Assembly: GCA_002315715.1 (NCBI GenBank)
Contig: DCHY01000033.1
Coordinates: 1 to 61,043, forward strand
DNA: 61,043 nucleotides
Source: Clostridiales bacterium UBA1740
Lineage (GTDB): Bacteria; Bacillota; Clostridia; Oscillospirales; CAG-272
Reading direction: 5' to 3'
The position numbers and the translations under genes were made by a program. Positions 2,318-56,017 of the stretch are shown here, piece after piece. The notes under the pieces were generated by a model. The model was not told where the DNA came from and did not search any database. It worked only from the letters and a program-made list of their open reading frames with translations. Position 1 is the first letter of the stretch. Each line of letters begins with the position of its first letter.

Positions 2318-2933
2318 ATCGATCGAACAAACGGAAATGATATTTGTCGTTCGTTTTTTCGGGGATTTTGATTTCTTTTTTGAGGGTGATGCACATCTCG
2401 AGAATGTCGTTCTTTTTCTCCGCCGTGAAAAGACACTCCGCGGTTTCTTCGCGATACGAATCGGAAGAGAGCGCTTGCTCGACGGTAGCGGCAGGCACGC
2501 CGAACAGGGAAGCGATACGATAAATCGCGGCGTCGCCTGCGTAAATCTTTTCTCGCAGTTGGGAGATATCCTGCACTTCACGGTTTTGCAAAAAAGCGAG
2601 TGCGGCTTTTCCGTCGTTGCCGATGACTTCTACCTTTTTCACCCCGCGCGGGCACTTGGTAAGGACGAGCGTTTTGCCGCTTTTGAGCGTCACCGCGTCA
2701 CGGGAAGAGAAGGGGCCGACCGTGAATATTTCGCTCTCGGACAGAACCACGCCGCGGAAAAAATAAATAAAGGTAAAGATAATCCAAATCACCGACGCCG
2801 CCATCAAGGGATAGAGTTTTCCTGGAACCGTCACGATGTCATTGTCGCGAAAAGCCAGCCACAATAGAATCAAGGGGGGAATCTCCGTCAAAAAACAGAG
2901 GGGATGCACCGAAAGATAAAACAGTTTTTTCAT
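2316..2933 (-). CDS. hypothetical membrane protein (about 3 N-terminal TM segments plus a soluble C-terminal part)
   Basis: ORF 2316..3026. The internal ATG at 2933 (MKKLFYLSV...) is the likely start. Hydrophobic N-terminus. A TTGCAA-17-TACAAT promoter lies just upstream at about 2955-2985. Confidence 0.6.
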   Translation of the reverse strand: MKKLFYLSVHPLCFLTEIPPLILLWLAFRDNDIVTVPGKLYPLMAASVIWIIFTFIYFFRGVVLSESEIFTVGPFSSRDAVTLKSGKTLVLTKCPRGVKKVEVIGNDGKAALAFLQNREVQDISQLREKIYAGDAAIYRIASLFGVPAATVEQALSSDSYREETAECLFTAEKKNDILEMCITLKKEIKIPEKTNDKYHFRLFDR

Positions 2934-3049
2934 ATTGACCTCGCTTTCATCTCTATTGTAGCATAGGATGCCGCCCGTTGCAAGAAAAATCAAAAAACCG
3001 TCAAGGGGATGAGTGAAGCCCTGCACATAACATTTTCTTTTGCAATAGA

Positions 3050-3083
3050 AAAAAGGACAGAGCCGAAACCCTGTCCTTTTTCG
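3050..3083 (-). terminator. rho-independent terminator after rpsI
   Basis: AGGACAG...CTGTCCT hairpin with a T-run on the minus strand. Confidence 0.7.
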
Positions 3084-3111
3084 TTCCTCGCCAAAATAGC
3101 GAGTCTCGGAT

Positions 3112-3513
3112 TTATCTCTTGGAGAACTGCGGTGCGCGACGAGCAGCCTTCAAGCCGTACTTCTTTCTTTCCTTCATACGAGGGTCACGAGTCAAAAGAC
3201 CTGCCTTCTTAAGAAGGGGTTTGTAAGTTTCATCAGCCGTGAGAAGAGCACGGGCAACGCCGTGACGGATAGCGCCTGCCTGACCGGAGAAGCCGCCGCC
3301 CTGAACGTTGGCAACGATATCGAACTTACCAACGGTTTCGGTAACGCCGAAAGGCTGGTTAACGATGAGTTTCATGGTTTCAAGACCAAAGTATTCGTCG
3401 ATGTTTCTGCCGTTAATGGTGATAGCACCGGTACCGGGATAAAGACGAACTCTTGCGACAGACTTTTTTCTTCTGCCGGTTCCGTAGAAATAAGGTTTTG
3501 CACTAGTATACAT
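3112..3513 (-). CDS. rpsI: 30S ribosomal protein S9 (uS9)
   Basis: [20 protein letters not shown] ... [17 protein letters not shown]. The ATG at 3513 has GGAGG 8 nt upstream, whereas the track start (TTG at 3519) is too close to the SD. Confidence 0.95.
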
Positions 3514-3530
3514 GTTCAATTCCTCCCTAA

Positions 3531-3956
3531 TCAGTCAAGTACAACGGGTTTCTGAGCCGCGTGATCATGTTCTGCGCCTGCATAAACGTGAAGACGGGTG
3601 AAAGACTTTGCACCGAGAGTGTTATGAGGAAGCATACCCTTAACGGCGAGCTCCATAGCGAGTTCGGGACGGGTAGCCATGAGGTGGCTGTACTGTTCCT
3701 CTTTGAGACCGCCGATGTAACCGGAGTGACGGCGATAGTATTTCTGCGTCAATTTGTTACCGGTAAGAACGGCATCCTTTGCGTTAATGATGATAACGAA
3801 CTCACCGCAATCAACGTTGGGGGTGAATTCGGGTCTGTGCTTACCTCTGAGAATGTCAGCGGCTTTCACAGCGACGCGGCCCAGGGGTTTGCCGGCAGCA
3901 TCGATAACATACCATTTGCGTTCAATGGTATTCTGATTTGCCATAAAAGTGGACAT
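3531..3956 (-). CDS. rplM: 50S ribosomal protein L13 (uL13)
   Basis: [27 protein letters not shown]... is canonical uL13. GGAGG lies 7 nt upstream, and the rplM-rpsI order is conserved. Confidence 0.95.
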
Positions 3957-4461: not shown

Positions 4462-5805
4462 TTGTCCCCAATGGACCCAAGCAGTATAGGGCTCATCGTT
4501 GTTTATTTTTTACTCGTTCTATGCAGCGCCTTTTTCTGCGCGGTGGAAATGGCTTTTTCTTCCGCCACGAAAATTAAATTTCTGAACTATAAGGAGAAAG
4601 CGCCGAAAAAGGTGGCGCTTTGCCTGTCGATTCAGGAAAAATACAATTTCTATTTGATTACGCTTCTCGTCGGCAGTAACATCGTCAACGCCGCGCTTGC
4701 CGCCGTATCGACGATTTTCTCCGTCCGCGTCTATAACGCGATGCACGCGGCAGGGCACTCGGTCGCCGAAGCAACGGTTACCACCGTCGCGACCGCCGTG
4801 ACCACCATCGTCATTTTTCTGTTTTGCGAAACGGTGCCCAAACGCATCGCCAAGGACAGAAGCGAGGAAGCCGCGCTTTTGCTTGCCCCGGTTCTCAAGA
4901 CCGTTTCGACGGTCCTCTATCCCGTTTCCATCGTGTTTATGACGCTTTCGCATCTGCTTGACCGCATGATAAAGCCCGAGCGGGAACCTACCGTCACCGA
5001 GGAGGAACTCTCCGAAATCATCGAAAGTTCCGAGGAAGACGGCGTCCTCGACGAAGACCAAAGCGACCTTTTACAGTCGGCTTTGACCTTTTCGGATACC
5101 CGCGTTGCGGACGTTCTCACGTTGCGCGACGACGTGGTATGGCTGGATATACACAGCGAAAAAGAGGATATTTTACGAAAGATCCGCGAAACGAAATATT
5201 CCCGTTTGCCCGTCTGCGACGGATCGCTTGACGCCCCCGTCGGTATCTTGATGGCAACGGATTTCTTAAAAGCCTATATTCTCGGCAGCTACACGCGTCT
5301 TTCGCGTTTGCTCCGCAAACCCTACTTTACGACGCTTGATGCCAACATCGACGACCTCAAAACCGAGATGAGCGGCAGAAAACAGCATTTGGCACTCGTT
5401 AAGGATAAGACCGGCACCGCCATCGTCGGCGTCGTCACGATTGAAGACTTTCTCGAAGAACTCGTCGGCGAAATATACGACGAGAGCGATACCGTCGATT
5501 ACGACTTTGTAAAACTCGGCGGCAAGTATTTCGAAATGTCCGGCAAACTCCCCTTGACCGAGGTGTGCCGCCGCATGGGATACTACCCGGGCGTGCCAAT
5601 CCCCGTTCATAAAACCGTCAGCACGTGGGCTCTCGAAAAACTCGGCAAGATTCCCGAAGAGGACGACGAGTTTGAGGTCGGCGACCTCACCGTCACCGTC
5701 AACGAAACCGAAAACAGCCGCGTGTCCCGTTTGACCATCAAAATCTCCGATCCCATGATCGACCTCCCCGAAGAAAACGAAGAAGAGGAGGATAGCGAGA
5801 TATGA
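4462..5805 (+). CDS. HlyC/CorC (CNNM/CorB) family transporter, paralog 1
   Basis: N-terminal 4-TM DUF21-like region, a central CBS-pair-like region and a CorC_HlyC-like tail, ending in an acidic tail. Possible starts are TTG at 4462 or ATG at 4471. Confidence 0.85.
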   Translation: MSPMDPSSIGLIVVYFLLVLCSAFFCAVEMAFSSATKIKFLNYKEKAPKKVALCLSIQEKYNFYLITLLVGSNIVNAALAAVSTIFSVRVYNAMHAAGHSVAEATVTTVATAVTTIVIFLFCETVPKRIAKDRSEEAALLLAPVLKTVSTVLYPVSIVFMTLSHLLDRMIKPEREPTVTEEELSEIIESSEEDGVLDEDQSDLLQSALTFSDTRVADVLTLRDDVVWLDIHSEKEDILRKIRETKYSRLPVCDGSLDAPVGILMATDFLKAYILGSYTRLSRLLRKPYFTTLDANIDDLKTEMSGRKQHLALVKDKTGTAIVGVVTIEDFLEELVGEIYDESDTVDYDFVKLGGKYFEMSGKLPLTEVCRRMGYYPGVPIPVHKTVSTWALEKLGKIPEEDDEFEVGDLTVTVNETENSRVSRLTIKISDPMIDLPEENEEEEDSEI

Positions 5806-7088
5806 TTTTTCTCAACGTGATTCTTCCTTTGATTTTGCTCATCGCTTTTTCCGCCTTTTTCTCGTCGGCGGAAATCGCCTTGACCTCGCTCAATCGCATG
5901 CGCCTTGAAAAAATGGCGGAGGAAGGCAAAAAAACAGCCACCCTCGCCGTCAAAATCGAGGACAAATACGCCGATGCGCTTTCGACCCTCTTGATTGGCA
6001 ACAATATCGTCAACACCGCGGCGTCTGCACTCGCGACGGCGGTCGCCCTGAAAGTATTCGGCGGCGACGAAGCCAAGAGCGGTATCATCGCCACCGCCGC
6101 TATCACGGTGCTTTTGTTGATTTTCGGTGAAATCATGCCGAAAATGGTGGGAAAACGTCTTGCCATTCCCATGGCGTGCGTCTATTCCTATCCCCTCGTC
6201 TTTTTCATGGTGCTGTTCCGTCCTTTGACGTTTCTCATCGGCGGCTTCGTCTCGCTGCTTTCTCCGATTTGGAAAAAGAACGAAAAAGACGACGTCGTCA
6301 CCGAAGACGAACTTGCCAATATCATCGAAACCGTCGAAGAAGAAGGCGTAATCGACGAGGATAAAGGCGAACTTTTGCAGTCCGCCCTCGACTTTTCGGA
6401 TATCACCGTCGAATCCATCATCACCCCCCGCGTCGAAGTCTTCGGCATCGACGACGAAGATACCCCCGGGGATATCTTCGAAGAAATCGTCAAAATCAAC
6501 CATTCCCGTTTCCCCGTTTATCACGAAAATCTCGACCACATCACCGGCGTTTTGTACCTGTCGCCTTTCTTAAAAGACGTGGCTGGCCGCGGTATCGAAA
6601 ACGTCAAGATAGCCGATTACGTCAAAGAAACGGCGTACGTCCACAAAACCACCAAACTGCCTGACGCCCTTGAAAAAATGCGACAGATGAAACTGCACAT
6701 GCTCGTTGTTCTCGACGAGTACGGCGGCACCCTCGGCATCGTCACCATGGAAGACATCCTCGAGGAAATCGTCGGCGACATTTGGGACGAAACCGACGAA
6801 ATCGAGGAAGACGTCGTCAAAATTGACGAGCAAACCTACGAAGTGATCGGCCATACCAATATTGAAGATTTCTTCGACGAAATCGAGTTTGAAGATCCCG
6901 ACTTCGACAGCGAATATACCACCATCGGCGGCTTTGCCGTGGAAATGCTCGAGGAAGACGCCCACGAAGGGGACGTTTTCCGTTATAAGAATTTGGAATT
7001 TACCGTTTCCGAAATGGGTGAAAACCTCGTGGAACGTTTGCACGTTTTCATCCTTCCCGAGGAAACGGAAGAGAGGGAAGAAGACTGA
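5802..7088 (+). CDS. HlyC/CorC (CNNM/CorB) family transporter, paralog 2
   Basis: Same architecture as the upstream gene, with an ATGA overlap with its stop (5802-5805). Confidence 0.85.
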   Translation: MIFLNVILPLILLIAFSAFFSSAEIALTSLNRMRLEKMAEEGKKTATLAVKIEDKYADALSTLLIGNNIVNTAASALATAVALKVFGGDEAKSGIIATAAITVLLLIFGEIMPKMVGKRLAIPMACVYSYPLVFFMVLFRPLTFLIGGFVSLLSPIWKKNEKDDVVTEDELANIIETVEEEGVIDEDKGELLQSALDFSDITVESIITPRVEVFGIDDEDTPGDIFEEIVKINHSRFPVYHENLDHITGVLYLSPFLKDVAGRGIENVKIADYVKETAYVHKTTKLPDALEKMRQMKLHMLVVLDEYGGTLGIVTMEDILEEIVGDIWDETDEIEEDVVKIDEQTYEVIGHTNIEDFFDEIEFEDPDFDSEYTTIGGFAVEMLEEDAHEGDVFRYKNLEFTVSEMGENLVERLHVFILPEETEEREED

Positions 7089-45600: not shown

Positions 45601-45629
45601 ATTATATAGGACCTGCGCGCGCATGTCAA
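45601..45629 (-). promoter_or_regulatory. consensus sigma-A promoter of AGCS symporter 1
   Basis: On the minus strand: TTGACA (45629-45624), 17-nt spacer, TATAAT (45606-45601). No riboswitch-like sequence in the short leader. Confidence 0.6.
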
Positions 45630-45645: not shown

Positions 45646-45680
45646 AAAAACCGCCGCCCCTTGAAGGACGGCGGAAAAAT
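45646..45680 (-). terminator. rho-independent terminator ending the VTC-DUF4956-beta-helix operon
   Basis: CCGCCG...CGGCGG hairpin followed by TTTTT on the minus strand. Confidence 0.7.
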
Positions 45681-45699
45681 AAGGAGAAAAGAGGAAAAA

Positions 45700-47823
45700 T
45701 CAAGAGAAAGTCGCGTTGCTTGCGCCGAGGAATATTACGAGCGCCGAGAGGGAAGTGGGCATTTCGACACTCGTCTTGGTCACGCCTCCGACCTTGACGG
45801 TGAGAGTTTGTCCTTTCGAGAGGGATTTGGTGGTTTTCGTGCCGATAGACGAGAAGTTTTGACATTTGGTCGATTCACTGCCCATGCCGTTTGAAGGACA
45901 AATGGCAAGTACGACACCGCCCGTGTAGGTATATCCTTGTTCGGTATCGATGGAGGAGTTGCCGCCCGACGTGCTGATAACGGTGACGGTGCCGCCTTCG
46001 AAAGAGATGCCTTTGTAGGACGTCTTGCTGTTGGCGTCGACGCCGTCGCCGCCGGCGTAGATATAAACCGTACCGCCCGCAAAGGTGATGCCCACGCCGG
46101 AGGTTGCCGTCGCATTGATGCCGTCGTCGGTGGAAGTGACGGAAATATCACCGCCCGTTACCGTCACGGTCGTTCCTTCGAGACCTTCGTAGCAGCCGCT
46201 GACGGTGATTTGACCGCCCGAAACGAGAAGGGCGCCGTCGGCGTGAACGCCGTCGTCTTTGGAGAATAGGGAAAGCGTACCGCCCGAGATTGTGACGTTG
46301 CCAAGCGGCGTTTGTTCGTTTTCAAGCGCCGTATCGCTGTTGGCGTGGATAGCGTCGTCGTAGGACTTGACGGTGACGTTGCCGCCCGAAATTCTTATCT
46401 CGTTGTCGGCTTTGATACCCTTCGTTGAATACTCGCTTTTGTCGGTATTGCCGTCTTGCATACCGCCCATGCCTCCCATGCCTCCGCCTTGCACGGAGGA
46501 GGAATAGTTCGTGAAGTTATAGGAAAGATAACCGCCGCGCGCTTCTATGGCAAAGGTGTCGTATGCGGTATTCCAGGTGATGTTGTCGGTCTTCGTCAGA
46601 TAGTCGCTCTCACTGCCGACGGTTTGGGTGGAGTTATAAACGAAGATTTGCACGTACTGATACCCCGTCAGTTTTTCGACCTCATAGTAGTAATAGGTCT
46701 GAAAACCGCCGCTGACGGATTTTGAATAAACGGCGCTAACCATCTGTTTGTCGGTGTCACTGTTGTAATAGAGCACCGCGTAGTTGTAATTTTTGGAGGT
46801 AAAACGAATATAGCGGCTGCCGCTTTCGCTCTCGGATGCCGTGACTTCTTCCGAATAGGGGGAATACTTGTCGGTGTATACGGAAAGCATCGTATCGCCG
46901 GAAATATCGACGTCGTAGGCGGCGTCAATCCCGTCGCAGGCGGCGTAAATATTCAAAGTACCGCCCGATAGGGTTACGGTGCCGCGCTGGTTGCCCTTGG
47001 AGGAAATATCGGAATTGCTCGTCTTGATGCCGTCGCCGCCTTTGGCGATGAGGGTGAGAATCCCGCCCGTCACCGTCACCGAGTCGTTGCCTTTGAGGGC
47101 GTTGTCGATACAGGTGACGGAAAGGGTCACGTTTTTGATTTCGAGATCGTCTTTGGTGTGAATGCCGTTGTTGTTTTCGGAAATGACGGTAAGTTCGCCC
47201 TTGCCCCCGATATCGAGGTCACACGCGGCGTACACGGCGGAAGCGTGCACGTCTATGTCGGTCACGGCAGGACGCTTGTCGTAGATATAGTTTCGCGTGT
47301 CTTTCTTCGCGGTTATTGTCACTTTGTCCGCCGAAACGATTTCGATGGGATTTTCGTCGGAAGAGAAGAGCGTTACGCCGCAAAGTTCGAGTTCAAACTT
47401 GAAATCCTCCCCGACGTCGATGCAAATTTGCCCGTCCAATTCGCCGGAGAGCGAAACGACCGTTTTTTCTGTGATATTTGTAAAATTCAAAGTTTTCCCG
47501 TCGAAAGCATAGCAATTTTCGGTACCTTCCGAAACGGTAACCACAAGAGTATTGACGGATTCTTGCAGTTCTTCGGGAATGTCCGTCTTTTCTTCGTCCA
47601 CTTTTTGCGCCGTTTCTTCGTCGCTTTCTTGGTCGGCGGACTGTCCGACATCCCCACTACCGCTTTGTCCTTGATTTTCGTTTTCACCGCTATCGTCGGT
47701 TTCGCCGCTTTCGCTGTCTCTGATGACGGAAATAAAACTCTCCCCAGCGTTTTGCAGACACGAAGAGAAAAAGAACGTCATGCAAAGACAAATACAAAGC
47801 ATGAAGATGAACGTTTTTTTCAT
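45700..47823 (-). CDS. surface lipoprotein with parallel beta-helix repeats, Cthe_2159-like carbohydrate/calcium-binding family
   Basis: Signal peptide with lipobox FSSC (MKKTFIFMLCICLCMTFFFSSC). An acidic low-complexity linker of about 60 aa precedes many repeats of the form (S/T)GG.(L/V)T(I/V)...(D)DG(I/V). The ATG at 47823 lies inside track ORF 45700..47844. Confidence 0.75.
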   Translation of the reverse strand: MKKTFIFMLCICLCMTFFFSSCLQNAGESFISVIRDSESGETDDSGENENQGQSGSGDVGQSADQESDEETAQKVDEEKTDIPEELQESVNTLVVTVSEGTENCYAFDGKTLNFTNITEKTVVSLSGELDGQICIDVGEDFKFELELCGVTLFSSDENPIEIVSADKVTITAKKDTRNYIYDKRPAVTDIDVHASAVYAACDLDIGGKGELTVISENNNGIHTKDDLEIKNVTLSVTCIDNALKGNDSVTVTGGILTLIAKGGDGIKTSNSDISSKGNQRGTVTLSGGTLNIYAACDGIDAAYDVDISGDTMLSVYTDKYSPYSEEVTASESESGSRYIRFTSKNYNYAVLYYNSDTDKQMVSAVYSKSVSGGFQTYYYYEVEKLTGYQYVQIFVYNSTQTVGSESDYLTKTDNITWNTAYDTFAIEARGGYLSYNFTNYSSSVQGGGMGGMGGMQDGNTDKSEYSTKGIKADNEIRISGGNVTVKSYDDAIHANSDTALENEQTPLGNVTISGGTLSLFSKDDGVHADGALLVSGGQITVSGCYEGLEGTTVTVTGGDISVTSTDDGINATATSGVGITFAGGTVYIYAGGDGVDANSKTSYKGISFEGGTVTVISTSGGNSSIDTEQGYTYTGGVVLAICPSNGMGSESTKCQNFSSIGTKTTKSLSKGQTLTVKVGGVTKTSVEMPTSLSALVIFLGASNATFS

Positions 47824-47833
47824 GTTAGATACC

Positions 47834-48505
47834 TCACAGTTCACTGTCGGAAAAATCCGAATTTTGAAGTACGATTTCCAAATTTCCGTTTTTTATACGC
47901 AAAGCGTCAAGAAACGCTTTCTCGGCAAACGTATCTTTTAGCGTGATGAGATAGGAAAGACGGAACATACTGCCCATGTTGACCGATTTGACTTTGATGA
48001 GTTCGTGACGCTTGGTGAAGTTTTCCATTTCTTCGTCAAACACTTCGGTGTAATCGAGTGATTCGGGAATGGTGATCTTCAAAAGTCTCTCAAGACCGCC
48101 CTGCCGTTTATTCACGGAAAAAACGTCAAACACCAAAAGAATGGTGCCCGAGAGAAGAAGGAAGATTCCGCCGTAGCCGAAGTAGCCGGTGCCAAAGGCA
48201 AGACCGCCCGCCATGGCGATGAAAACGGCGGTGATTTCCCGCGCCGTACCGGGCGCCGAGCGGAACCGTACAAGACCGAAGGCACCTGCAATGGCGACGC
48301 CGATACCGAGATTGCCGTTGACGAGGGCGATAACCACCGCCACCGCCATGGGAAGCATGGCAAGGGTAATCGAAAAACTTTTGGTGGTGCGATTTTTATA
48401 GCAGGCAAGCACGGCAAAGAGAATGCCGAAGAGCAAAGCTGCCGTCATCATGAAAAGAAAATCCGCGGGCGTCATGCTGCCGCTTTCAAAGAGTGATTGA
48501 AACAT
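47834..48505 (-). CDS. DUF4956-like polytopic membrane protein
   Basis: About 5 TM segments with a GLVRFRSAPG motif and a soluble tail of about 75 aa. It overlaps the upstream VTC-like gene by 20 nt (an alternative ATG is at 48475). Confidence 0.75.
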   Translation of the reverse strand: MFQSLFESGSMTPADFLFMMTAALLFGILFAVLACYKNRTTKSFSITLAMLPMAVAVVIALVNGNLGIGVAIAGAFGLVRFRSAPGTAREITAVFIAMAGGLAFGTGYFGYGGIFLLLSGTILLVFDVFSVNKRQGGLERLLKITIPESLDYTEVFDEEMENFTKRHELIKVKSVNMGSMFRLSYLITLKDTFAEKAFLDALRIKNGNLEIVLQNSDFSDSEL

Positions 48506-49193
48506 GGTTTTGTTCTCCTGTTTTTCGGTCGCGTTCTTTTATAAACGCACGGCCGTATTTTGAAAAGGACGTTTTGTTGACGGCGTTCTCGGCTAACAGA
48601 CGGCAAAGCCAAAGAGGAACGGCGACGCCGGTTTTGATTTCGACGAGAAAACAACCGTCGGGAAGAAGGCTTTCTCCTTCAAGGGAAGTATGAAAATTGA
48701 GGTCTTCCGTACGGTAGCGGACGTTGCGGTCAAAGGTCACGCGCAGGTCGCTGTCCCGGTCGGCAAACGCCGTTCTGTCGTAGAGAATCAGCATCTTCGG
48801 ATAGAGAGAATCGTAGAAAGAATAAAAGTATTTGAGTTCGCGGCCGATTTGCGAGAAATCGTCCTTGGAAATGGAACCAATGTCCTTTTCTTTACAACGA
48901 ACCCTTCTTTTGTAAACAATACCGTTCATTTTCCGCTTCATTTCGAGAAAAACGTCTTTTTCGCCGTCGTTCAATCCATAACATCTGGCTCTCAGTTTTT
49001 CTTTGTATTTAGGCTTATCAAGAGATGCCAAAATCAGATCGTCGGCGTCGGTATCGAAATAGAGACTTTGTATCGTGCTCTCCCCGTGGGGGTCTTTTTG
49101 CATATGAGAATCCACTCCGCGCATAAGCGCAAGTCCCTGTTCTTCCGAACAAAGATATTTCATCTCGTATCGCATAAAAACGAAATCGCTCAC
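48486..49193 (-). CDS. VTC-domain (polyphosphate-polymerase-like, triphosphate tunnel) protein
   Basis: GTG start with a GGGGGA SD. MSDFVFMRYEMKY... carries the tunnel-fold ExExK-type signature. About 235 aa, soluble, resembling bacterial PF09359 proteins. Confidence 0.75.
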   Translation of the reverse strand: MSDFVFMRYEMKYLCSEEQGLALMRGVDSHMQKDPHGESTIQSLYFDTDADDLILASLDKPKYKEKLRARCYGLNDGEKDVFLEMKRKMNGIVYKRRVRCKEKDIGSISKDDFSQIGRELKYFYSFYDSLYPKMLILYDRTAFADRDSDLRVTFDRNVRYRTEDLNFHTSLEGESLLPDGCFLVEIKTGVAVPLWLCRLLAENAVNKTSFSKYGRAFIKERDRKTGEQNHVSITL

Positions 49194-49243
49194 GTCAATT
49201 CCCCCTTTCCTCTTTCATTATACGGGTTGATTCTTAAGCCAAA

Positions 49244-49273
49244 CTAAAAACGCCCGAAAAAATCGGGCGTTTC
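49244..49273 (-). terminator. rho-independent terminator after the ABC ATPase gene
   Basis: ACGCCCGA-A5-TCGGGCGT hairpin followed by TTTTT on the minus strand. Confidence 0.75.
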
Positions 49274-49279
49274 TTAAAA

Positions 49280-49984
49280 TTATTTTTTTCGCTGTATTTT
49301 TTGCAGTTCGTAGCGCACGTCGCACATGGCGGCAACCTCCGCCGAATGGCTGACGAGAATAACGCATTTTCCTTCGTTTGCAAGCCCTTTGAAAATCTCC
49401 ATGATTTCCCCTTGGGTTTCTCGGTCAAGGTTGCCGGTCGGCTCGTCCGCGAGGATGATAGAGGGATTATACGAAAGTGCTCTGGCAATGGCGACGCGCT
49501 GTTGTTGACCTCCCGAGAGCAAGAGAACGCGGCGATTGGCTTCGTCCTCGTCGAGACCGACGCTTTGAAGAAGCGCCATGGCGCGCGCTTTTTTGTCCGC
49601 GATTTTCACGCCGGAGATATCCATCGAGAGCACGACGTTTTCAAGCGCCGTATATTTGGTAATCAAATTGAAACTTTGGAAAACGACGCCGATATCGCGT
49701 GAGCGAAAGACGTACTTGTCGGTTTTGGAGATGCTTTGCCCCTCGAAAAGAATGTCGCCGGTATTCGGGGAAGCAAGCCCCGACAGAAGCGAAAGAAGGG
49801 TGGTTTTCCCGGCACCGGATTTGCCGATGATACAGTACATTTTTCCTTTTTCAAAGTCAAAGGACAAATCTTTTAAGACCGGGGTTTTGTCGTAGGCAAA
49901 ACTGATATGGTGAAGCGACAAAACGGGAATCGGGAAATTTTCGCCCGCCTCGTTTGCCGTTTGATTTTGCAGTATTTCTTCCAT
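49280..49984 (-). CDS. ABC transporter ATP-binding protein (MacB/LolD/FtsE-like)
   Basis: Walker [12 protein letters not shown], signature [15 protein letters not shown], Walker [13 protein letters not shown]. The ATG at 49984 has an AAGGAG SD, inside track ORF 49280..50059. Confidence 0.9.
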
Positions 49985-54895: not shown

Positions 54896-56017
54896 GTGTT
54901 CAGTTCCGATAAGAATCTGTTCCTCGAAGCAACCGAGAAAAAACCGAACCGCTATGCGGCAATTGCCATGCTGTTTTACATGATTTGTATGACGTTTTGC
55001 TGGTTCTTGACCGAGATCGGCGTTTTTCTCGTCGGAAAAACCGAAATGCGAATCGGTGCGATCGCTACGGTCGTTTCGGCTCTCGTACCGCTAATATTGA
55101 TGAAAATCAAGCCGAATCTTTTGATCCATCCTGCCATGAAATACGTCATCATGCTGTCGTCGTTTATATTCACACTGGCCATAACGACTTTTTTGACTTT
55201 CCATACCATGAGCATGCTGCTTTTCCCGATGTTTCTCGGTATGATTTACCGTTCGAAAAACCTCGGTATCATGGCGTTTCTCTCTTCGGCGCTTTCCACC
55301 GTCATCGCGCCGGTGCTCGGTTATCTCCTTCGCACGTGGGACATTCTGTTCTTCGAGCGGTTGATTCTTCTCGGCACGGACGTTGACGTTCATATTGCCG
55401 AACTGTATGAGAAGGCGAGTTGGAACTCCGTCGGACAGATTTTTCTTTTCATTATCATGCCGCGCCTTTTGATGGTAGGGGCTTGTGCCATCTTGATGTT
55501 TTACGTCATTCGCGTCGGTGTCGACCACGTCAAAAACCAATTGCAGTTGACGAGCATCAGCCACAGAGATGCGCTGACGGGACTCTTTAACCGCAATTAT
55601 CTGACGGACGTCATGGGCGACCGCTCTTTTTCCGGCGTTTGTACCGTTTTCTTCTTCGACGTCAACGGACTCAAAAGTGTCAACGACCGCATGGGGCACG
55701 AGGCGGGCGATTTGATGCTGCGCGGCTGTGCCGATTGCTTGCGCGAATTGTGCGATGAAGATACCTCCGCCGCCTTCCGCATGGGAGGAGACGAGTTCTT
55801 GATGCTTTCTTTCAGCGGCAAAGATCTTCCCGCAAAGACGGTTGAAAAAATCAACGCCGCCCTCCGAGAAGTCAGCGCCACCACCGAACTGCGCGACAAA
55901 GGTATCGTCTGTTCCATGGCGGCAGGGTTTGCAACGGGTGATTTTGCCGATATCGAAAAACTCATCCGCACCGCCGACGCCAATATGTACGAAAATAAAA
56001 AAGCCTCCCGCGCCTGA
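54896..56017 (+). CDS. membrane-anchored diguanylate cyclase (GGDEF domain)
   Basis: N-terminal region of about 6 TM segments, followed by RDALTGLFNR ... FFFDVNGLKSVND ... RMGGDEFLM. GTG start with AAGGAGGG upstream. Confidence 0.88.
   Translation: MFSSDKNLFLEATEKKPNRYAAIAMLFYMICMTFCWFLTEIGVFLVGKTEMRIGAIATVVSALVPLILMKIKPNLLIHPAMKYVIMLSSFIFTLAITTFLTFHTMSMLLFPMFLGMIYRSKNLGIMAFLSSALSTVIAPVLGYLLRTWDILFFERLILLGTDVDVHIAELYEKASWNSVGQIFLFIIMPRLLMVGACAILMFYVIRVGVDHVKNQLQLTSISHRDALTGLFNRNYLTDVMGDRSFSGVCTVFFFDVNGLKSVNDRMGHEAGDLMLRGCADCLRELCDEDTSAAFRMGGDEFLMLSFSGKDLPAKTVEKINAALREVSATTELRDKGIVCSMAAGFATGDFADIEKLIRTADANMYENKKASRA

Follow-up and report, generated by a model that had tools for sequence, protein, structure and literature searches.

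A question raised by a locus in the genome of Clostridiales bacterium UBA1740 is whether bacteria make polyphosphate (polyP) with an enzyme of the VTC type known from eukaryotes and, if so, which membrane and surface partners such an enzyme works with and what switches it on. The locus lies on contig DCHY01000033.1 (assembly GCA_002315715.1), of which positions 1 to 61,043, a stretch of 61,043 nucleotides (nt) here called the window, were analysed. Three minus-strand genes, termed g1, g2 and g3, encode a soluble VTC-type tunnel protein, a DUF4956 membrane protein and a Cthe_2159-type lipoprotein, respectively. We classify them as part of a real and widespread regulon, in which putative VTC-type polyP synthesis has a membrane partner of another kind and comes with a surface lipoprotein and a two-component control circuit. 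In a first-pass annotation, made from the sequence alone, the three genes had been described as tightly packed, with a 20-nt overlap between g1 and g2, a 10-nt gap before g3, flanking terminators and a TATAAT at 49222-49217, and every one of these details is borne out. The same gene order with identical genes is found in the public gene calls of public metagenome contigs.

The Vtc4-like protein and its membrane and surface partners

The Pfam families that the first-pass annotation had predicted for the three proteins were all matched far above their curated cut-offs, i.e. PF09359 (VTC) by g1 with 135.5 bits (cut-off 23, E = 2.9e-39; residues 8-216 cover profile positions 2-230 of 235), PF16316 (DUF4956) by g2 with 51.4 bits (cut-off 30.6, E = 1.3e-13; 40 of 40 aligned relatives match as well) and PF14262 (Cthe_2159) by g3 with 223.3 bits in four stretches (cut-off 25.8, E = 4.4e-66). 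No NCBIfam model matched g1-g3, nor did any PADLOC model of known anti-phage defence systems, and Rfam showed no leader RNA, its sole match being a sub-threshold suhB hit on the terminator.

The AlphaFold2 (AF2) model of g1 (predicted local distance difference test (pLDDT) 88, predicted template-modelling score 0.84) has an eight-stranded tunnel fold that is closest to Vtc4. In Foldseek searches, the top nine matches were all Vtc4, with the Vtc4 tunnel domain 3G3R_B as the best PDB match (E = 5e-15, template-modelling score 0.75, approximately 278 aligned columns); catalytic Vtc4 ranked above the inactive Vtc3 and Vtc2, and ygiF, CYTH cyclases and thiamine triphosphatase followed far below, with template-modelling scores of 0.4-0.57. 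A profile of 82 bacterial VTC sequences was aligned by HMMER to Vtc4 residues 191-386 (E = 4.8e-11), as was a narrower profile, and this alignment places R196, K200, R264, R266, E279, K281, K294, Y359, R361 and R373 of Vtc4 at R8, K12, R68, R70, E84, K86, K95, Y138, R140 and R151 of g1, respectively. All ten positions are invariant or at least 90% conserved among the 82 sequences and they include the triphosphate-binding residues K200, R264, R266, K281, Y359 and R361 of Vtc4; the mapped Vtc4 residues are listed as essential for polyP synthesis and are among those whose mutation lowers polyP in yeast (Liu et al.). Beyond the aligned part, in strand 8 and at the start of the last helix of g1, conservation reaches at least 90% at E185 and is complete at K187 and S211-K212. 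By Pfam, the 235 residues of g1 comprise the VTC domain only, with no SPX domain, and there is no transmembrane segment. The data strongly support g1 as a stand-alone homologue of the catalytic tunnel domain of yeast Vtc4. The resemblance to the VTC polymerase domain noticed in the first-pass annotation is found again in both the fold and the aligned residues, the tunnel-domain Lys, Arg and Glu residues (K12, R68, R70, E84, K86 and others) being present. The ‘ExExK’ signature it had named holds as to the tunnel family and not as to the motif itself, which is not a full ExExK: it reads R8-x-E10-x-K12 and stands between the ExExK of hydrolytic tunnel enzymes and the R-x-T-x-K of Vtc4. The Shine-Dalgarno sequence of g1, as read from the sequence, is GGAAAGGGGG.

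The AF2 model of g2 (pLDDT 77) shows five transmembrane helices (residues 13-35, 42-61, 66-83, 88-106 and 109-129) followed by a C-terminal alpha/beta domain of ACT-like type (residues 139-215). The GLVRFR motif occupies residues 77-82, so that the earlier description of a DUF4956-like protein with about five transmembrane segments and this motif was accurate. In an alignment of the family, which comprises approximately 4200 clusters at 50% identity, the R80-F-R82-S loop is invariant, and the Gly/Ala-rich third transmembrane helix (TM3), E90 and the soluble-domain motifs PE.LDY, NMGSMF and RNGNLE are conserved too. The positively charged loops YKNRTTK and RFRSAPGTARE support the prediction that the R-F-R loop and the soluble C-terminal domain are cytoplasmic, and an N-terminus on the outside is supported because relatives carry a signal peptide and an extracellular N-terminal extension.

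In g3, residues 115-313 align to residues 68-266 of 4PEU (E = 8.8e-24), which together with 4PHB represents the solved structure of the family's founder. The founder protein reportedly binds Ca2+ and cellulosic or pectic polymers (according to the Pfam description). g3 carries a signal peptide with a predicted lipobox, F-S-S-C22 (MKKTFIFMLCICLCMTFFFSSC), in which the F at position -3 is non-canonical when compared with [LVI][ASTVI][GAS]C; a strict lipobox is found at the same place in at least 36 of 49 syntenic Cthe_2159 homologues. It is followed by a tether (residues 23-95) with 21 D/E versus 3 K/R and by the β-helix, which is interrupted by a Tyr/Ser-rich insert of approximately 150 residues (about 320-470) and a GGGMGGMGGM linker. 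The FSSC sequence of the putative lipobox, the acidic Ser/Gly/Asp/Glu tether and the Cthe_2159 repeats of the first-pass annotation are all found again; its ‘more than ten’ repeats was slightly generous, since eight coils conform strictly to GG.[LVI].[LVIF], with degenerate ones in addition. An interpretation of the acidic tether as a PASK-like polyP attachment site was set aside, as the linkers of homologues are non-acidic and consist of Ser, Thr and Ala; an ordinary flexible tether is likelier.

How far this arrangement is conserved was determined by scanning one genome per GTDB species, which yielded at least 591 VTC relatives; the best 80 loci, mostly from gut and rumen Clostridia, were analysed. 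The VTC gene is directly followed by a DUF4956 gene in 79 of the 80, an arrangement confirmed by public gene calls, and the two coding regions overlap in 56 of 77, mostly by 8 nt; translational coupling of g1 and g2 is strongly supported. In approximately 51 of about 72 loci that could be evaluated, a Cthe_2159 homologue comes third. The VTC-DUF4956 pair forms the core unit, with Cthe_2159 as a frequent but replaceable third partner, so that synteny of the trio, as the first-pass annotation conceived it, is near-complete for the pair and partial for the whole. Order and coupling are kept from Clostridia to Bacilli, and two cultured genomes place the unit beyond the Clostridia, i.e. Paenibacillus cellulosilyticus (histidine kinase/response regulator, VTC, DUF4956, Cthe_2159) and Acetoanaerobium noterae (response regulator, histidine kinase, VTC, DUF4956, PLD-type enzyme). 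There is no recurrent downstream partner: GGDEF proteins account for only 5 and EAL proteins for 3 of the 134 flanking proteins scanned, and no glycosyltransferase, pel, CotH or DUF4832 family recurs among the 281 flanking proteins of the 80 loci, which cover two genes per side.

In A. noterae (locus L083, 8744-13140), the third gene encodes a cardiolipin-synthase-like PLD enzyme, and a P-type cation ATPase gene lies opposite. In Clostridium thermocellum adapted to ethanol, a PLD gene ranked second among targets by frequency of mutation and a VTC-domain gene was a weaker target, and together these observations may point to a link with membrane lipids.

A two-component regulon around the trio

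The only genes that recur upstream of VTC operons encode an OmpR-type regulator and a HisKA kinase (25-26 loci), and both have counterparts in the window (table 1). Homologues of the window's response regulator adjoin VTC operons in at least 30 loci. The window's kinase, in which two hydrophobic segments surround an extracytoplasmic domain of approximately 140 residues, is homologous to VTC-adjacent kinases in 24 loci, and its sensor part alone (residues 1-205) suffices to find them, with E-values down to 1e-54. Upstream of VTC genes there is a conserved direct repeat with the consensus TTTTTAAGTTGATTTAAGGTT, followed at fixed spacing by a -10 element. With a 34-nt matrix built from 17 foreign VTC promoters only, both strands of the whole window were scanned along with 200 shuffled versions, which contained on average 0.02 sites scoring at least 20 per window and reached a maximum of 23.0. 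The three best sites in the real window are the promoters P2, P1 and P3, which precede the FtsX/ABC genes, the regulator gene and the trio, respectively. At P3 there is no -35 hexamer; its place is taken by the box, 10 nt ahead of the -10 element, and VTC genes in 44 other loci are preceded by boxes in matching register. The same matrix finds a box directly before VTC in 27 loci outside the set that it was built from and a second box before the regulator gene in many loci, and the position of P1 before the regulator gene in the window implies autoregulation. A fourth match, at 11529-11496, lies between genes in AT-rich sequence where the minus strand has no gene, and it was taken as chance.

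Table 1. Features of the trio and of its regulatory surroundings in the window.
Feature	Position	Strand	Details
P1, CiaR-like direct-repeat box and -10 element, before regulator gene	53820-53787	minus	ATTTAAGGCTCATTTAATGTTGCCGCGGTACGAT; score 22.3, second best
OmpR-family response regulator	53764-53087	minus	225 residues; Pfam Response_reg and Trans_reg_C; recognition helix VVWVYISYLRKKL
Sensor histidine kinase	53097-51823	minus	424-430 residues; Pfam HisKA and HATPase_c; public gene call
P2, response regulator box and -10 element, before FtsX/ABC genes	51779-51746	minus	TTTTTAAGTACAGTTAAGTTTTGGGAAGTATGAT; score 25.4, best in window, above shuffle maximum
FtsX/MacB-type ABC permease	51707-49995	minus	570 residues; Pfam FtsX; large extracytoplasmic domain, Gly-rich linkers
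ABC ATPase	49984-49280	minus	Pfam ABC_tran; 234 residues by public gene call
Terminator 5' of trio, after ABC genes	49274-49246	minus	hairpin with 12-pair stem (terminator scan)
P3, trio promoter	49250-49217	minus	response regulator box TTTTTAGTTTGGCTTAAGAATC, 6 nt (AACCCG), TATAAT; score 20.2, third best
g1, VTC/Vtc4-like soluble tunnel protein, putative polyP polymerase	49193-48486	minus	GTG start; 235 residues; N-terminus MSDFVFMRYEMKY
g2, DUF4956 membrane protein	48505-47834	minus	223 residues
g3, Cthe_2159 lipoprotein	ATG 47823, stop 45700	minus	707 residues; GAGG ribosome-binding site
Trio-ending intrinsic terminator	45674-45651	minus	10-pair stem, 8 GC pairs, then T-run (terminator scan)

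These data strongly support the prediction that, at the three promoters of the OmpR-type regulator, the ABC exporter and the trio, the -35 element is replaced by a TTAAG-type direct-repeat box for this regulator. The trio, which the first-pass annotation had called self-contained, is not: with a conserved regulator box instead of a -35 element, and in a regulon with the upstream regulator-kinase pair and the ABC exporter, it is predicted to be the output operon of a CiaRH-like two-component envelope regulon. The FtsX/ABC pair, which in the window is inserted between the two-component genes and the trio, was ruled out as a conserved member, since the only FtsX homologue among the fetched loci is in locus L001, i.e. 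on the same contig as the window. Some relatives have a SigI/RsgI pair instead of the two-component system. In every case, control of the VTC operon comes from an extracytoplasmic sensor, either the kinase or SigI/RsgI.

One sub-clade (L087, 7696-13826; L088; L006) shows the order VTC, DUF4956, Glug-motif protein, extracytoplasmic function sigma factor (SigI-like), RsgI-type anti-sigma factor and a Cthe_2159 protein of 965 residues; here, the sigma/anti-sigma pair takes the place of the two-component system. In the window, the T-tract of the terminator that follows the ABC genes extends into the first half-site of P3. TTAAGAA occurs twice within 49229-49282, the two copies flanking the hairpin of the terminator that separates the ABC genes from g1; the regulator box has the downstream copy as its second half-site, and the upstream copy may be chance. 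Low-complexity linkers rich in Gly and Met are found in the extracytoplasmic parts of both the FtsX permease (GGFGGGGMFG and GGNMGGGKMPGGAGGFSGG) and g3 (the linker given above), which are members of one regulon.

Further neighbours include a GGDEF diguanylate cyclase gene (54896-56017, plus strand), which adjoins the two-component genes. Just past the trio terminator, at 45601-45629 on the minus strand, there is a perfect sigma-70 consensus promoter (TTGACA-17-TATAAT, 12/12), which drives a gene for a Na+/alanine symporter (45544-44141); the opposite flank of the cluster carries a paralogue of this symporter gene (58317-56752). At approximately 60.7-61.0 kb, the window ends within a gene for a bacterial serpin (PF00079; L001 positions 1-323; public gene calls, same contig).

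Possible synthesis and export of polyP, and alternative readings

What, then, might the trio do? In the model that we favour, g1 would polymerize polyP from ATP or other nucleoside triphosphates (NTP) at the inner face of the membrane, where an oligomer of g2 would hold the enzyme. In g2, the polymer would be received by the Gly/Ala-rich TM3 and the invariant R-F-R loop and either passed across the membrane or held there, with the ACT-like domain docking or gating g1. Outside, g3 as a lipid-anchored β-helix of the Ca2+-binding type would handle the product or link it to wall glycans. To this full model of synthesis, export and surface handling, the mechanism of which is hypothetical, we assign a chance somewhat short of even. 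Because g2 is unlike the yeast VTC channel and g3 is very acidic, export in particular is a step that we infer. The physiological role is likely to be cell-surface remodelling under envelope or ionic stress. A further-reaching version appears doubtful to us: it would make this a third bacterial polyP pathway, present in many gut and rumen Firmicutes and unrelated to PPK1 and PPK2, in which the Vtc4-like enzyme, docked on a DUF4956 oligomer acting as polyP translocase, would, upon detection of envelope stress by a CiaRH-like sensor, place polyP on the cell surface or outside it, and in which DUF4956 would be an independently evolved polyanion channel, convergent with the membrane domain of VTC.

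Several observations weigh against the synthesis-export model. With respect to g1, E10 stands where Vtc4 has T198, and its chemistry could therefore differ. The conserved E185/K187 and S211-K212 may correspond to E426/K428 (E426 being a metal ligand) and S457-K458 of Vtc4, a mapping based on motif order and conservation because the HMMER alignments end at Vtc4 residue 386; the 82-sequence profile reached only this far, a C-terminal profile found nothing in PDB, and a homologue search with a Vtc4 fragment returned only exon-sized pieces ending before residue 420. K458 distinguishes active Vtc4 from inactive Vtc2/3 (Liu et al.). The g2 model has no whole-protein match in Foldseek, and the VTC complex (7YTJ/8I6V) is not among its 1367 matches; only the C-terminal 80 residues match known folds, i.e. 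generic ferredoxin/ACT-like domains, and they do so weakly (E of about 1e-2). DUF202, the family of the VTC transmembrane domain, was not matched by g2 and 39 relatives in Pfam even at E<=10; at this level, Pfam searches with DUF4956 relatives gave noise only, and PDB sequence searches with g2/DUF4956 were empty. By these searches DUF4956 is no homologue of the VTC membrane channel, and the tunnel docked on a channel that the first-pass annotation had in mind stays an analogy. Sub-threshold MgtC matches (E = 0.9 in 4 of 40 DUF4956 members, E = 6e-4 in the distant relative P0511) are a lead only, and the modelled architecture of g2, with five transmembrane helices and an ACT-like domain, would also fit a regulatory membrane protein. 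Three public protein clusters, P0089, P0405 and P0448, look like VTC-DUF4956 or VTC-Cthe_2159 fusions, yet each is devoid of internal parts of both domains, and they are most likely assembly chimeras or deletions inside the operon; a natural VTC-DUF4956 fusion was not found. Where Cthe_2159 is missing, the next gene is mixed (YhhN, acyltransferase, PLD, Glug or none), i.e. the third gene is replaceable. Finally, mature g3 is strongly acidic, with an isoelectric point of 4.2, which makes simple electrostatic retention of a polyanion unlikely; Ca2+ bridging would be needed.

Some of these points also suit a reading in which the polyP made by g1 stays in the cytoplasm: g2 would tether or regulate g1 in an MgtC-like manner, its ACT-like domain sensing a small ligand, and g3 would be a co-regulated surface protein that binds glycans and serves another purpose. 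No pore-like homology is seen for g2, its five transmembrane segments and ferredoxin/ACT-like domain resemble regulatory modules, P0511 has its weak MgtC match, g3 is acidic, and the variation of the third gene suggests that the pair can act without a surface partner. However, the most frequent third partner is always extracytoplasmic, being a lipoprotein, and the regulators are sensors of the outside, i.e. a kinase with an external domain or SigI/RsgI; the contexts described in the literature are exopolysaccharide (pel) loci and CotH kinases of secreted type, and a cytosolic granule enzyme needs no coupling to a polytopic membrane protein. On balance we regard membrane-anchored intracellular synthesis as rather unlikely. 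That g1 is not a polymerase at all, but a tunnel-fold hydrolase, cyclase or other phosphotransferase (a tri- or polyphosphatase, NTPase or synthase of a signalling nucleotide) controlling g2 as a cation or phosphate transporter or channel, is improbable: both sequence and structure of g1 are clearly closest to Vtc4, and the basic residue set of Vtc4 is kept, including the probable equivalent of K458. Such a role would be in line with the functional diversity of the TTM/CYTH superfamily, to which the lower-ranking ygiF and CYTH cyclase matches belong, as well as with the retention of E10 of the hydrolase-type ExExK, absent from Vtc4; a P-type cation ATPase gene and a Na/Pi-PhoU gene do occur near some loci, but such cation and phosphate genes are not recurrent.

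A further possibility is that, in place of a release of free polyP, another envelope polymer is modified, for example by providing wall glycopolymers, exopolysaccharide or surface proteins with (poly)phosphoryl groups, the β-helix (CotH or PLD in other genomes) serving as extracellular transferase or binder. The VTC-DUF4956 pair is reported beside Gram-positive pel loci with CotH kinase and DUF4832 genes and beside CotH and a GT2 synthase in Clostridium perfringens NELoc-2; the Cthe_2159 fold is, according to its Pfam description, of the polysaccharide-lyase/binding type; and the third gene of Acetoanaerobium encodes a phosphatidyl/phosphoryl transferase of the PLD type. Against this, the recurrent glycosyltransferase, pel or CotH gene that one might look for is missing from the two-gene flanks of the 80 loci, public gene calls show no CotH, DUF4832, pel or glycosyltransferase gene within approximately 10 kb of the trio in the window, and g3 has no assignable catalytic residues; we give this reading a small chance only. 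The view that three unrelated genes merely lie side by side, g3 being an ordinary fibre-binding adhesin of a gut anaerobe, can appeal to the common occurrence of proteins of the Cthe_2159 family among gut and cellulolytic Clostridia. It is already contradicted by the synteny and promoter data, i.e. by order and coupling conserved over 80 species-level genomes from Clostridia to Bacilli and by a conserved promoter box in common, and is improbable in the extreme.

Returning to synthesis and export, several consequences would follow. If g1-type enzymes, encoded in at least 591 species-level genomes, are active, bacteria would have a second enzymology for polyP. Should DUF4956 translocate the polymer, bacteria would have in it their first dedicated polyP exporter. 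Export of polyP, if true, bears on surface charge, on the handling of cations and antimicrobial peptides, on the biofilm matrix and on host effects of polyP from gut microbes. The conserved regulator box provides an experimental handle on what switches the operon on, and cultured carriers (P. cellulosilyticus, A. noterae and streptococci, for example Streptococcus mutans with SMU_1946) make the hypothesis directly testable.

Relation to known systems

Full-text literature searches found no experimental function for bacterial VTC or DUF4956 proteins, in agreement with what the first-pass annotation had stated. DUF4956 genes appear in published expression tables, one listing placing BT3498 (DUF4956) beside BT3499 (DUF2490), and the reviews of polyP consulted name PPK1 and PPK2 as the enzymes of bacterial synthesis and cover VTC in eukaryotes only. 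The pairing of VTC with DUF4956 has previously been mentioned only in passing. Accessory genes for CotH, a polyphosphate polymerase, DUF4956 and DUF4832 have been listed, as genes only, beside Gram-positive pel loci, with a bifidobacterial version of the cluster that includes a cyclase/phosphodiesterase gene (Whitfield et al. 2020, PMC7112168). Likewise, a VTC-‘tubulin’-CotH cluster with a GT2 synthase has been listed, again as genes only, for NELoc-2 of C. perfringens (Lepp et al. 2010, PMC2879425). These clusters share with the trio the VTC-DUF4956 core pair and an envelope or exopolymer context, and NELoc-2 also starts with a regulator responding to an extracytoplasmic signal, SigI. In contrast, the trio is free of CotH, DUF4832, pel and GT2 genes, its third gene encodes a Cthe_2159 lipoprotein, and its control lies with a two-component system for which a box is defined. 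Side by side with NELoc-2 may be set a metagenome-assembled genome of the Erysipelotrichaceae (L071), in which two VTC paralogues lie a few kb apart (2868-3542 and 5318-6028), each preceded by a regulator box; this duplication recalls the duplicated VTC-‘tubulin’ pairs of NELoc-2.

With PPK1 and PPK2, g1 would share its putative product, i.e. polyP made from NTP, whereas there is no sequence relationship, g1-g3 matching only VTC, DUF4956 and Cthe_2159 in Pfam and neither PP_kinase nor PPK2. No membrane or surface partner dedicated to PPK enzymes is known. g3 belongs to the same family of right-handed β-helix repeats as Cthe_2159 of C. thermocellum (4PEU/4PHB), but differs in being lipid-anchored, as predicted, behind an acidic tether, in being approximately twice as long and in having its helix split by an insert of about 150 residues.

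As to regulation, the streptococcal CiaR box is NTTAAG-N5-TTTAAG, located 10 nt upstream of the -10 element, and BAS0540/0541 is a homologue in Bacillus anthracis. The boxes in the window resemble it in their TTAAG half-sites, direct-repeat arrangement and equal distance to the -10 element, and the implied autoregulation, a similar recognition helix and a kinase with an extracytoplasmic loop are further features in common with CiaRH. In contrast to CiaR, with its strict N5 spacing, the window boxes have N4-N5; the likeness of the regulator is one of box and helix, no NCBIfam equivalog model reaching its cut-off with it; and VTC operons have not been reported in CiaR regulons.

The closest parallel is the VTC complex itself (7YTJ, 8I6V; 3G3Q/3G3R), which in yeast couples synthesis to translocation via a basic channel entrance. 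g1 has the tunnel fold, with Vtc4 as best match and the triphosphate-binding residues kept, and in both systems there is a genetic tie between the enzyme and a membrane protein whose cytoplasmic face is basic, as predicted for g2. However, g1 has neither SPX nor a fused DUF202/Vtc1-type domain with three transmembrane segments and carries E10 at the position of Vtc4 T198. The membrane partner of the trio is a separate and unrelated protein with five transmembrane helices and an ACT-like domain; a surface lipoprotein is added; and, whereas VTC is under the control of inositol pyrophosphates, the trio is predicted to be under that of a two-component system.

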